A stretch of 64,000 nucleotides of DNA from NCBI GenBank assembly GCA_050944155.1, contig JBMNQN010000001.1, positions 79,409-143,408 on the forward strand, given 5' to 3'. Under the pieces are notes generated by a model, which did no database searches, was not told the DNA's origin, and saw only the letters and a program-made list of their open reading frames with translations. The DNA comes from Candidatus Methanomethylophilaceae archaeon (lineage in GTDB: Archaea; Thermoplasmatota; Thermoplasmata; Methanomassiliicoccales; Methanomethylophilaceae). A program made the position numbers and the translations under genes. Positions 39,000 to 41,744 of the stretch are shown one piece after another. The stretch's first letter is position 1; every line of letters begins with the position of its first letter.

Positions 39000-39596
39000 G
39001 TGGTTATGGATACGGAAACAATCATAGAATCGCTGAAAATGCACATGCCCGAAGTGGTTCTGATTGTAGGAGGACTGCTTGCGGTTCTCATAGTTTATTT
39101 TTATCTCAAGAACGAAACTTCGGCGGGTTACAAACTGTCGGTGTTTCTGGGTCTGATCGTCGGAGTTCTCATGATATACGTGGCGACGGTTTCCTGGTCG
39201 GGACTTGCGGTTTCGACGGCAATTATAGTCGTCGTGGGGGGTTTCACTCTGGTCATAAGGCCGTTCAGATCCGTGAACTTCGCGGTCATACTGGCACTGC
39301 TGGTCATGGCCGTGGCGTACATACTGCTGGGAAGCCTCGAAGGTTCCCAGGTTTACAACATAGATATCTCGTTCCTTGCGAGCGGATGGCCGAGAATAAT
39401 AGTCGCCGTGGTTGCCGGGGCGTTGACATACATGATTACCAATTTCATAGAAGAAGCGATAAAAATATTCGGAAAACTTCTGAATTGGTGGCCTTTCCTG
39501 ATGATACTCGGTCTGATCTGTATTGCGGAAGGAATATCCGTCGGTTTGGGACACGGTTCTGTTTACGAACTCTACCTCAGCTATACCGGAGAATAA
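39000..39596 (+). CDS. Multi-pass membrane protein of unknown function
   Basis: About 6 TM segments; start may be ATG 39006. Confidence 0.8.
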   Translation: MVMDTETIIESLKMHMPEVVLIVGGLLAVLIVYFYLKNETSAGYKLSVFLGLIVGVLMIYVATVSWSGLAVSTAIIVVVGGFTLVIRPFRSVNFAVILALLVMAVAYILLGSLEGSQVYNIDISFLASGWPRIIVAVVAGALTYMITNFIEEAIKIFGKLLNWWPFLMILGLICIAEGISVGLGHGSVYELYLSYTGE

Positions 39597-39653
39597 GCAG
39601 TCCGACATGTTCCGTGTAAAGATTTATATTACAGGAGTCGTTGTTGGGTGAGT

Positions 39654-39758
39654 GGGCCCGTGGCTTAGCCAGGATATAGCGCTGGCCTTCTAAGCCAGAC
39701 GCCTCGGGTTCGAAAGTCTCATTGAAAAAAGAGACCGAAATTCCCGACGGGCCCGCCA
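39654..39758 (+). tRNA. tRNA-Arg(TCT) with 27-nt non-canonical intron at 59/60 (39715-39741)
   Basis: GGGCCCG/CGGGCCC-G-CCA acceptor; CTGGC-CT-TCT-AA-GCCAG anticodon arm. A perfect BHB in the T-arm restores TTCGAAT on splicing. Confidence 0.93.
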
Positions 39759-39799
39759 CAGGAAACCGTTGAGAAACGGCAGTCCAAGGAAGGTAAAAT

Positions 39800-39907
39800 A
39801 TGAAGAGAAGTTCACGCGCCTGGAAGAAACGCGGAAACCAGCGTTGGAAATGGCGCAAGAAGAAGATGAGAAGGAGAAAGAGAGCAGCGAAGATGCGCAA
39901 GGCTTGA
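39800..39907 (+). CDS. rpl41e: Ribosomal protein eL41 (L41e), 35 aa
   Basis: MKRSSRAWKKRGNQRWKWRKKKMRRRKRAAKMRKA* contains the RWKWxKKxxRRxKR eL41 core; SD GGAAGGT. Confidence 0.9.
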   Translation: MKRSSRAWKKRGNQRWKWRKKKMRRRKRAAKMRKA

Positions 39908-39929
39908 TCAATCAGAGTCATTCTGACAA

Positions 39930-40101
39930 GGGAGTATAGGCTAACCTGGCAGACTGGCGGGCTCCAGTTATCGAGCGTGATTTGATTGAGTTGGCTGACA
40001 GTTGTGATGAATAACTGGAGCGATGACTCAATAATTTCGCGGAGGGTAGCTCCCTCCGTGGTGGAAACCCGCTGATGGGGGTTCAAATCCCTCTGCTCCC
40101 A
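39930..40101 (+). tRNA. tRNA-Trp(CCA) with about 99-nt intron (about 39968-40066)
   Basis: GGGAGTA/TGCTCCC-A acceptor; GCGGG-CT-CCA-G | intron | A-CCCGC; GGTTCAAATCC T-arm. Confidence 0.93.
39968..40066 (+). ncRNA. Intron-encoded box C/D guide RNA (predicts Cm34 of tRNA-Trp)
   Basis: GTGATGA box, then ATAACTGGAGC complementary to the pre-tRNA GCTCCAGTTAT, then an ATGA D-like box. The N+5 rule lands on C34. Confidence 0.8.
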
Positions 40102-40123
40102 CCTTGCGCATCCCCGGTGCCAT

Positions 40124-40180
40124 TACCTTTCGGTCACGGAAGGTATTAACCTCTTTCGACTCTTTTTCTTTGCTATTTTT
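40124..40180 (+). terminator. Hairpin plus T-tract after tRNA-Trp
   Basis: TACCTTTCG-GTCA-CGGAAGGTA followed by T-rich runs. Confidence 0.55.
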
Positions 40181-40379
40181 TATATCTGCAATATTGCAAA
40201 CTCGGTTTTTATCGAAAGTCAACGGACTGCGCTGACATCGGTTCTCATGAGATCCAGGCCGGATGCGTTATTTCCGTAAGGTTCACTTTGTAAAGAACCG
40301 AGCCCACAAATTTGCGGTCGCACAGCTGTGCTACGAGGGCTTCGGAAGCCATGGTAACGGCACGTAACGCTACCGGAAC

Positions 40380-41744
40380 TCAGTTCTTGAAACTGTGTAT
40401 GGGTGCGGGTATGCGGCCTTTGCGGTTTACGAATCCGGCACATCCGAATTCGTTCACCGGCATGACGGGTCCTCCGCCGAGAAGTCCGCCGAATTCCGCT
40501 CTGTCTCCCGCCTTCTTTCCCACGACGGGAATGAGTCTGCATGCGGTGGTCTTCTGATTCACCATACCGATGGCCATTTCGTCGGCTATTATTCCGGAAA
40601 TCGTCTCCTCGGAAGTGTCTCCCGGTATAGCCACCATGTCCAGTCCCACGGAGCATACGCAGGTCATGGCTTCCAGTTTTTCGAGAGTAAGGGCGCCGCA
40701 TTCGGCCGCGCGCACCATGGAGCTGTCCTCGGATACGGGGATGAACGCACCGCTCAGACCTCCCACGTATGACGAAGCCATCACGCCTCCCTTTTTCACC
40801 TGATCGTTGAGTATGGCGAGAGCGGCGGTGGTTCCGTGCGCTCCGGTTCTTTCGATACCCATCTCTTCGATGATGTCGGCTATGCTGTCTCCCACCGCGG
40901 GAGTCGGTGCCAGGGACAAATCCACGATTCCGAAGGGAACTCCCAGTCTGTTCGACGCTTCCCTTGCCACCAGCTGTCCCACTCTCGTGACTTTGAACGC
41001 AGTTTTCTTTATGGTTTCGCAGAGGACTTCGAAATCTTCCCCTTTGACTTTGGATACGGCGGTTTTCACCACTCCGGGACCGGAAACTCCCACGTTGATT
41101 ACGGTTTCAGGTTCGGTGACTCCGTGGAACGCACCCGCCATGAACGGGTTGTCGTCGGGCGGGTTGCAGAAAACCACAAGTTTGGCGCATCCCACCGAAT
41201 CGTGTTCCTTCGTAAGTTCTGCGGTTTTCTTTATGATTCGGCCCATTTTGCGGACGGCGTTCATGTTTATTCCCGCCCTGGTGGAACCCAGGGAGACCGA
41301 ACTGCAGATTCTTTCGGTGGAAGCTAAGGCTTCCGGTATGGAATCTATGAGAAGAACGTCCGAATCGTTCATTCCTTTCTGAACCAGCGCGGAATATCCT
41401 CCTATGAAGTTGACGCCTATCTTTTCGGCCGCTCTGTCCAGGGTTTTCGCGATTTCGACGAAATCTCCCGCGGTCCTGCAGGCGGAAGCTCCGACTATGG
41501 ATACCGGCGTCACCGAAACGCGTTTGTTCGTTATGGGAATGCCGTATTCCAGTCCTATTTCGTCTCCCACGGAGACCAAATCCTTTGCTTTGTCCGTGAT
41601 TTTCGCGTAGACGGCATCGCAGAGTTCGTCCAGATTTCTGCTGCAGCAGTCCGTCAGACCGATTCCCATGGTTATGGTCCTGACGTCCAGGCTTTCGTCC
41701 TTGATCATGGTGTTCGTTTCGAACACTTCTTCAAGTTCCACCAT
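40380..41744 (-). CDS. DUF711/UPF0210 (PFL-like) protein
   Basis: [38 protein letters not shown] and C-terminal [10 protein letters not shown]. Confidence 0.93.

Follow-up and report, generated by a model that had tools for sequence, protein, structure and literature searches.

Organization of the locus

We analysed a 64,000-nucleotide (nt) stretch of a Candidatus Methanomethylophilaceae archaeon (assembly GCA_050944155.1, contig JBMNQN010000001.1, positions 79,409 to 143,408; hereafter the window), in which a short open reading frame (ORF) that appears to encode ribosomal protein L41e lies between the genes for tRNA-Arg(UCU) and tRNA-Trp(CCA), both of which contain introns. All features of this unit are on the + strand, and coordinates are those of the window. 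An earlier annotation of the window from its letters (the sequence-only reading) had listed a promoter, the tRNAs and their introns, two spacers with hairpins, the ORF and a terminator, and each of these was found in its place.

The unit opens with a putative promoter at 39617–39630, recognized by a matrix match and composed of a B recognition element (BRE) and a TATA element (TTTATATT, 39623–39630); transcription is predicted to start a few nt 5′ of 39654. tRNA-Arg(UCU), recognized from its sequence and by Rfam, occupies 39654–39755 with an encoded CCA to 39758, and is interrupted in the T-loop, at position 59/60, by a 27-nt intron (39715–39741) with an hBHBh′ motif, a form of the bulge-helix-bulge (BHB). 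Spacer 1 (39759–39799, 41 nt) contains a hairpin at 39761–39785, which starts 3 nt past the CCA of tRNA-Arg and has the inner stem CCGTT-GAGA-AACGG at 39766–39779, and then a Shine-Dalgarno (SD)-like GGAAGGT (39788–39794), 5 nt before the ATG of the 35-codon ORF, rpl41e (39800–39907). Spacer 2 (39908–39929, 22 nt) contains the hairpin TCAGA-gtcat-TCTGA at 39912–39926. tRNA-Trp(CCA), found by ARAGORN with introns allowed, follows at 39930–40101; its intron of about 99 nt lies at the canonical place (39968–40066 in our reading) and includes a C′ box, TGATGA, at 40005–40010 and a predicted guide at 40011–40022. The terminator region (40137–40181) consists of a hairpin (40137–40158) followed by tracts of five (40163–40167) and six (40176–40181) T residues, and a hairpin with a T-rich tract is also present at this position in relatives.

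On the evidence of its matches to chains of solved ribosomes, the ORF is the gene for ribosomal protein L41e (eL41), which recent PDB entries call eS32. A phmmer search against PDB returned L41e chains (6sw9_0, E 0.0018; 9fny_A2, E 0.002; 6skf_Bk, E 0.0032), and the matches in solved Pyrococcus and Thermococcus ribosomes lie at E 0.0018–0.01; each PDB match is full-length and collinear (residues 1–33 of 35–37), and the short length and low complexity of the protein account for the weak E-values. Searches of Pfam (to E 0.1) and NCBIfam (to E 10) gave no match to the ORF, and Pfam PF05162 (Ribosomal_L41) has no match in the whole genome of the window; this model passes its cut-off in none of 14 control genomes, two of them archaeal, and is therefore blind to archaeal L41e. 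L41e was detected in 116 of the 151 Thermoplasmatota genomes sampled, and in this phylum 87 distinct rpl41e DNA sequences encode 58 distinct proteins. The nearest named records come from Methanomassiliicoccales, Methanomethylophilaceae, Methanoplasma and Methanoprimaticola assemblies.

Promoters and gene order

Sequences upstream of 38 tRNA genes in the window's genome were used to derive a 12-nt promoter matrix (median score 10.8); by this matrix the boxes of most tRNA genes in the genome start 33–40 nt before the tRNA. The only good match in 39560–40200 scores 9.8 and starts at 39619, 35 nt before G1 of tRNA-Arg, and the runner-up (6.2, at 39790) overlaps the SD and ATG of rpl41e. No match above 6.2 occurs in 39631–39929, with none within the tRNA-Arg intron, and the best score in the 60 nt upstream of tRNA-Trp is 0.4. 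On visual inspection of 40 tRNA genes, only tRNA-Trp lacks any A/T-rich box in these 60 nt, and almost all other tRNA genes of the genome carry their own promoter. The single TATA-like box and the absence of a clear internal promoter, both noted in the sequence-only reading, thus hold under the matrix, and the scans support a single promoter that would serve all three genes in the window's genome and family. Upstream of the unit, a 198-residue membrane-protein-like ORF (39000–39596, + strand) ends 58 nt before tRNA-Arg; it has weak family matches only (TctB, E 0.008; TcpD domain, E 0.053), and within the genus its 3′ end is kept ahead of the unit.

DNA matches to the unit are present in 38 of 41 relatives within the order Methanomassiliicoccales, of which the window's family is one family. 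From these relatives 36 loci were retrieved, and further loci were added later (labels L001 and so on). In all 45 distinct parsed loci of the order the spacer between ORF and tRNA-Trp measures 9–26 nt, which therefore leaves no room for a promoter before tRNA-Trp. The spacer between tRNA-Arg and the ORF is more variable. It is 31–48 nt in the window's family and contains no box, the scores there being at most 6.2 and lying over the SD or inside the tRNA; in one genus of this family (L022) it is 61 nt, with a box that scores 6.7 at −53 from the ATG. In 14 loci of the other six families of the order it is 59–70 or 675–1305 nt and includes a promoter-like box (AAAGGTTATTAA, AAAATTTGATAA and similar) that scores 4.7–9.7 at −41 to −63 from the ATG. 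The long spacers belong to one genus, where 675–1305 nt are inserted between tRNA-Arg and the box in three of four genomes while the box stays with the ORF.

Since a promoter-like box precedes the ORF in sister families, the fusion of three genes under one promoter would be specific to the window's family. Only this family appears to have lost the box before rpl41e, and the same family carries the hairpin in spacer 1. The earlier suggestion of a single start for all three genes accordingly fits the window's family, where no box is found, and does not extend to its sisters. The insert of 0.7–1.3 kilobases (kb) lies directly past tRNA-Arg in L030, L032 and L034, seems to hold an opposite-strand gene in L032 and L034, and may represent an insertion beside a tRNA gene.

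Neighbours of L41e were also surveyed more widely, in Thermoplasmatota and one DPANN-type phylum. Of 44 wider Thermoplasmatota loci, 37 have tRNA-Trp 3′ of L41e in the same orientation (29 recognized by ARAGORN and eight by eye, these eight carrying a second, T-loop intron), and seven loci have no tRNA nearby. Outside the order, rpl41e is followed by tRNA-Trp in 17 of the 21 Thermoplasmatota families sampled, and tRNA-Arg(UCU) is upstream on the same strand in six of the families. We conclude from this distribution that the rpl41e–tRNA-Trp pair is probably ancestral in Thermoplasmatota, with tRNA-Arg(UCU) frequent upstream. Conservation of gene order, named earlier as a check, is borne out across the phylum for rpl41e and tRNA-Trp; the link to tRNA-Arg, which is split in one genus and upstream in fewer families, is not conserved to this extent.

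In the DPANN phylum a tRNA gene lies within 300 nt of L41e in seven of 32 loci, where it is tRNA-Glu, -Leu, -Met, -Val or -Gly, and an Arg or Trp tRNA is beside L41e in none of the 32. In some Woesearchaeota- or Nanoarchaeota-type genomes L41e lies 45–140 nt past a same-strand tRNA-Glu (L108, L113, L123, L124, L141, L160, L172 and L177), and L41e may have come to lie behind a tRNA gene on more than one occasion. Two records of the survey have titles at odds with their content. L126 is titled uncultured Methanosarcinales, and its phylum relatives are 0.5–2.1 Mb genomes with DPANN-like L41e, so that the label may not fit; L100 is titled Faecalibacterium sp. CAG:74 and has an archaeal tRNA-Arg/L41e/tRNA-Trp unit with 97% protein identity, so that this bin probably holds a foreign contig.

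Hairpins in the spacers

The hairpin in spacer 1 of the window has a minimum free energy (MFE) of −8.6 kcal/mol. Among 36 distinct spacers of the window's family, 32 have a hairpin of at least 5 base pairs (bp) and at most −5 kcal/mol starting 2–4 nt past the end of tRNA-Arg; the stems differ in sequence between genera, and in the alignment the hairpin is followed by an unpaired, conserved purine-rich GGAAGG or AGAGGA. The mean MFE of the 36 spacers is −10.05 kcal/mol, compared with −6.36 for shuffled sequences, and z-scores of individual spacers range from +0.4 to −3.6 across the family. Spacer 2 gives a weaker signal: the 27 distinct sequences of stop codon plus spacer from the family have a mean MFE of −3.76 kcal/mol (−0.95 when shuffled), and six of the 27 reach 5 bp and −5 kcal/mol. 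The folding of these sequences supports the recurrence, with different sequences across the family, of hairpins directly past tRNA-Arg and before tRNA-Trp, and is suggestive of the spacer 1 hairpin as a conserved element.

A helix between the end of rpl41e and the tRNA-Trp trailer

A further pairing, absent from the sequence-only reading, was newly found here. The sequence GATGCGCAAGG at 39892–39902, which covers the last base of codon 31, codons 32–34 and the first base of codon 35 of rpl41e, is the exact reverse complement of CCTTGCGCATC at 40102–40112, the first 11 nt of the tRNA-Trp trailer, which starts directly past the discriminator base A40101. The resulting 11-bp helix is present in the MFE fold of 39880–40125. 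In the window's family, 34 distinct combinations of ORF end and trailer have a mean duplex energy of −20.7 kcal/mol, with 32 of the 34 at or below −12, and shuffled trailers average −9.2. All three loci of a second family show the same behaviour (−14.0 to −20.6 kcal/mol, shuffled trailers about −7). In the other five families of the order duplex energies are at control level, and outside the order none of the 21 parsed loci exceeds shuffled trailers by more than about one standard deviation; eight further loci did not fit the parsing pattern.

Support for the helix is taken from these energies, from the fraction of positions paired in a fixed register (0.639, compared with 0.34–0.45 in shifted registers), and from individual compensations. 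Codon 31 changes from AAG to AAA together with C to T in the trailer (L008 and L014; in two other AAA combinations, L047 and L048, indels in the trailer prevent alignment by a fixed register), codon 32 changes from ATG to TTA or TTG together with T to A in the trailer in four combinations, and codon 33 changes from CGC to CGT together with G to A in one. The covariation argues that the end of the ORF and the trailer of tRNA-Trp evolve as parts of one RNA. We also considered the helix as a BHB substrate and rejected this, the stem being free of bulges in the fold; it is therefore no obvious substrate for the splicing endonuclease. Farther along the trailer, at 40113–40160, a second hairpin precedes a T-rich tract. 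Its place is conserved and its sequence varies (relatives have, for example, GCCCCCC...GGGGGC), and it may be a terminator hairpin or a small stable trailer RNA.

RNA-library contigs

Contigs from RNA libraries cover much of the unit. Three runs of one sample gave contigs at 39685 to beyond 40500, 39692–40234 and 39716–40262, and a second metatranscriptome study gave one at 39841–40463. All four are unspliced, and the contigs bridge the tRNA-Arg intron, the ORF, tRNA-Trp and its trailer, which is compatible with co-transcription. The contig starts at 39685–39716 fall where the sequence is identical in relatives, which would break the assembly. No RNA contig from the four runs covers 39382–39627; this was rejected as a sign of the transcription start, absence of cover being no finding.

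The tRNA genes and their introns

Default ARAGORN detects neither tRNA of the unit, and the Rfam tRNA model recovers only the 5′ part of tRNA-Arg (31.1 bits); for tRNA-Arg, the miss and the low score are due to the 27-nt insert in its T-loop. Minus this insert the gene yields a 78-nt cloverleaf with the length and layout of the intron-less genes of relatives. It is the sole copy of tRNA-Arg(UCU) found in the assembly, and its intron is the sole one of its style there. The insert has the hallmarks of a BHB intron: two 3-nt bulges (AAA and ATT) separated by a 4-bp central helix (TTCG/CGAA), between the T-stem (TCGGG/CCCGA, 39704–39708/39743–39747) and an inner helix (GTCTC/GAGAC), with the cloverleaf restored on its removal. 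Placing the splice sites past the second base of each bulge, the rule given in the review PMC4090602, predicts a spliced T-loop of TTCGAAT. The hBHBh′ motif is kept in all 27 distinct homologous introns, with compensatory changes in the inner helix, which is uninterrupted for at least 3 bp in 24 of them.

The T-loop intron is not integral to the layout, since tRNA-Arg is intron-less in 10 loci; nine of these have the short promoter-less spacer, and the tenth, L120, ends inside the ORF at a contig end. Within the one order, introns of tRNA-Arg(UCU) differ between families, being absent, in the T-loop only, in the anticodon loop only, or in both (compared across L001–L036, L044, L053, L088, L092, L094–96, L098, L120 and L132), a pattern that looks like repeated gain or loss. 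CCA is encoded in about half of the 40 tRNA genes of the genome.

tRNA-Trp is likewise the sole copy in the assembly; ARAGORN, with introns allowed, gives an intron of 99 nt, and the gene encodes CC-T at its 3′ end, not CCA. The guide in this intron is complementary at 11 of 12 bases to the anticodon loop (39961–39971), with C34 opposite the fifth base 5′ of the D box. In place of CTGA the D box has the non-canonical ATGA, and the C box is degenerate. Against Rfam the window's intron gives only a weak C/D match (sR33, 12.8 bits, E 1.8), and homologous introns of relatives reach sR3 (41.1 bits in L086). According to PMC4090602, which cites Omer 2000, Clouet d'Orval 2001 and Singh 2004, the archaeal tRNA-Trp intron contains a box C/D guide for 2′-O-methylation of its own tRNA; the C/D-guide intron is already known biology and no part of a new system.

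In other Thermoplasmatota families (L052, L054, L055, L057, L058, L062, L086) tRNA-Trp has two introns, which ARAGORN misses: one of C/D type in the anticodon loop and one in the T-loop at a 59/60-like position (GGGTTCAAA...GAAATTCCCAG). Elsewhere in the window's genome, the same intron-containing tRNA-Tyr(GUA) is found at the ends of two contigs (C2:1 and C4:102034), probably the sign of a repeat or of a break in the assembly.

Discussion

We propose that the locus is a three-gene RNA unit with one promoter, processed at its tRNA ends and kept for a benefit of co-expression, an explanation that as a whole we consider probable. All three genes would be transcribed from the BRE/TATA box, with transcription ending at the T-tracts at about 40163–40181. 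tRNA-Arg would be released at its 3′ end by an RNase Z-type activity and tRNA-Trp at its 5′ end by RNase P, and these two cuts would free an L41e mRNA of about 170 nt, its ends guarded by the 5′-proximal hairpin and the 3′ hairpin. The splicing endonuclease would excise both introns, the one at position 59/60 of tRNA-Arg and the one with the C/D guide in tRNA-Trp. The 11-bp helix would enclose spacer 2 and the whole of tRNA-Trp as one domain; it is likeliest a folding or processing stem, which either insulates the long pre-tRNA-Trp or keeps the 3′ end of the mRNA paired with the trailer. The advantage most likely lies simply in expressing components of translation together from a strong promoter of tRNA type, and not in codon-specific feedback. 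The core of what the sequence-only reading proposed, a tRNA-flanked mRNA with terminal hairpins under a single promoter, is in this respect supported by the matrix scan, by the recurring hairpins and by the covariation between ORF end and trailer.

Several observations weigh against this reading. The four RNA-library contigs contain no spliced joint and show no transcript ends, so that neither a start nor processed ends are visible there. A contig that runs across several genes does not prove a single transcript, and RNA libraries may contain DNA. The matrix was derived from the genome's own tRNA promoters and could miss an atypical one. Because tRNA-Arg encodes its CCA, the 3′ cut may fall before or after it. 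RNAalifold on a MAFFT alignment of the 36 spacer 1 sequences gives no consensus structure, and the evidence for this hairpin is therefore the per-sequence folding of related, non-independent sequences. For the helix, the fraction paired of 0.639 is only narrowly above that of permuted trailers (mean 0.609, maximum 0.623, 500 permutations), a margin that is small because the ORF end is almost invariant, and the count of covarying columns gives no separation (eight in the true register, four to nine in shifted ones). The helix spans four sense codons and must therefore open for translation, and any role assigned to it is a guess.

A first alternative is that the unit is a passive relic, in which the three genes are simply read through, the mRNA is an unprocessed or randomly trimmed precursor, and the hairpins and helix have no role in end formation or stability. 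The RNA contigs without processed ends fit such a relic, as do the modest z-scores of the hairpins and the weakness of those in spacer 2. It does not account for a hairpin kept with different sequences in 32 of 36 spacers, or for a helix kept by compensatory changes, one of them at a synonymous codon position. Moreover, the tRNAs must be excised by RNase P and a 3′ nuclease, which would set the mRNA ends near 39759 and 39929 in any case, and we regard the relic as unlikely.

A further alternative concerns the helix, which could act as a translation-coupled switch: a ribosome at the end of the Trp-rich ORF would open the helix and free the 3′ end of the cell's sole tRNA-Trp for processing, and an untranslated precursor would be held closed. 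Such a switch would tie the maturation of tRNA-Trp and of the C/D guide to ongoing ribosomal-protein synthesis, and in the window's family both ends of the ribosomal-protein mRNA would be left wholly to tRNA-processing enzymes; we think it distinctly unlikely.

Very unlikely, in our view, is a promoter for rpl41e inside the 3′ part of tRNA-Arg, for example in the A/T-rich intron loop about 80 nt before the ATG, such that only rpl41e and tRNA-Trp are co-transcribed, as in the sister families. Many members of the family do have A/T-rich intron loops (ATTGAAAAAA, ATAAAAA, GATAAAAAA), but several genera with the same short spacer have G+C-rich loops (GTCAA, CCGCAAA) or no intron, and the matrix stays at or below 6.2 throughout the interval between the promoter and tRNA-Trp, without a match in the intron. 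The intron as promoter was rejected on these grounds. That sister families use a box in front of the ORF, and that RNA contigs begin inside tRNA-Arg, at 39685–39716, would agree with an internal start, which would however make the hairpin directly past the tRNA hard to explain.

The sequence-only reading had gone further and proposed that translation of rpl41e reports the supply of charged tRNA-Arg(UCU) and tRNA-Trp, with splicing of the T-loop intron gating mRNA release. The ORF is very rich in Arg (10 of 35 codons: four AGA, one AGG, four CGC and one CGT) and in Trp (three TGG codons), and the unit holds the genome's sole tRNA-Trp and sole tRNA-Arg(UCU). Yet AGA and AGG (AGR) make up 5 of the 10 Arg codons, compared with 46% in 600 long ORFs of the genome; among the 87 distinct Thermoplasmatota ORFs their share varies from 0 to 0.89 and falls with G+C content at third codon positions (GC3; r −0.45), and L027, with tRNA-Arg(UCU) directly upstream, has no AGR among 10 Arg codons. 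All members of the protein family share the three Trp residues, which are among the 15 invariant columns of the L41e alignment and are present also in the Pyrococcus L41e of solved ribosomes, and the commonest residue of the ORF is Lys (11 of 35), to which no tRNA-Lys is linked. Nor is the earlier emphasis on flanking tRNAs that decode the message supported by DPANN, where the tRNA neighbours of L41e, if there are any, are others. As to gating, the T-loop intron puts a helix in place of the T-loop, and a helix there could hinder recognition by RNase P and RNase Z; in 10 loci, however, tRNA-Arg has no intron, nine of them in the same promoter-less layout. The ORF-end/trailer helix offers a possible link from translation of the last codons to the 3′ end of tRNA-Trp. 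With sister families having their own box before the ORF, and tRNA-Arg 0.7–1.3 kb away in one genus, we judge this regulatory model highly improbable.

The main interest of the locus lies in three features: the dependence of tRNA-Trp on a ribosomal-protein promoter across the phylum, the loss of a promoter specific to one family, and the helix between coding sequence and trailer. Across most of the phylum, a sole tRNA-Trp without its own promoter would ride on a ribosomal-protein mRNA. One order presents three states, namely an own box before the ORF, a tRNA-Arg that has split off, and a fused unit with the box lost and a hairpin in the spacer, and this series is natural material on how an mRNA copes with processed as opposed to primary ends. 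The helix offers a compact and testable instance in which RNA structure limits the choice of codons, and the T-loop and double tRNA introns occur here outside the lineages usually described for them. No central concept is changed, but laboratories working on archaeal RNA processing gain a defined substrate.

Comparison with known systems

Co-transcription of tRNA and mRNA is known in mitochondria and bacteria and is little documented on archaeal chromosomes. A literature search on L41e with tRNA-Trp or Thermoplasma found no description of the unit, and PMC3432209 has nothing relevant to it; in PMC4247193, supplements aside, the sole related case is a tRNA-Arg co-transcribed with a snoRNA in Thermococcus.

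The introns have close counterparts. Like the known C/D-guide intron, that of tRNA-Trp is long, canonical in position, and has a C′ box and a guide that sets C34 as target; it differs in its ATGA D box and its weak Rfam score. The tRNA-Arg intron resembles the 59/60 BHB introns described in PMC4090602 in its strict hBHBh′ form, 3-nt bulges, 4-bp central helix and T-loop position. That review describes non-canonical introns of the 59/60 type as typical of Crenarchaeota and Nanoarchaeota, and Euryarchaeota as having only one canonical intron per tRNA gene, whereas here such introns occur in Thermoplasmatota, sometimes beside a canonical one.

As in mitochondrial tRNA punctuation, tRNAs flank the mRNA, whose ends would come from the same RNase P and RNase Z cuts that trim the tRNAs. 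Such punctuation of polycistronic transcripts in mitochondria was reportedly set out by Ojala and colleagues in 1981. It is also covered in PMC3790967. The present unit differs in being an archaeal chromosomal locus with one short mRNA, not a genome-wide arrangement, and in having 41- and 22-nt spacers with hairpins and an SD, and introns in both tRNAs.

Bacteria have mixed operons of tRNA and protein genes, such as thrU-tyrU-glyT-thrT-tufB of E. coli and tyrT with the small basic Tpr peptide. The unit shares with these the combination of tRNAs with a gene for a translation-related or small basic protein, which would likewise be served by one promoter and separated by processing. It differs in domain and enzymes, in that tRNA-Trp follows the ORF and would depend on it for transcription, and in the helix of coding sequence and trailer that brackets tRNA-Trp. 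Processing stems formed by leader and trailer close off rRNA and tRNA precursors in archaea and bacteria. The pairing of 39892–39902 with 40102–40112 would similarly close off a stable RNA as one domain, but here, unlike in those stems, the 5′ strand is protein-coding (codons 31–35).

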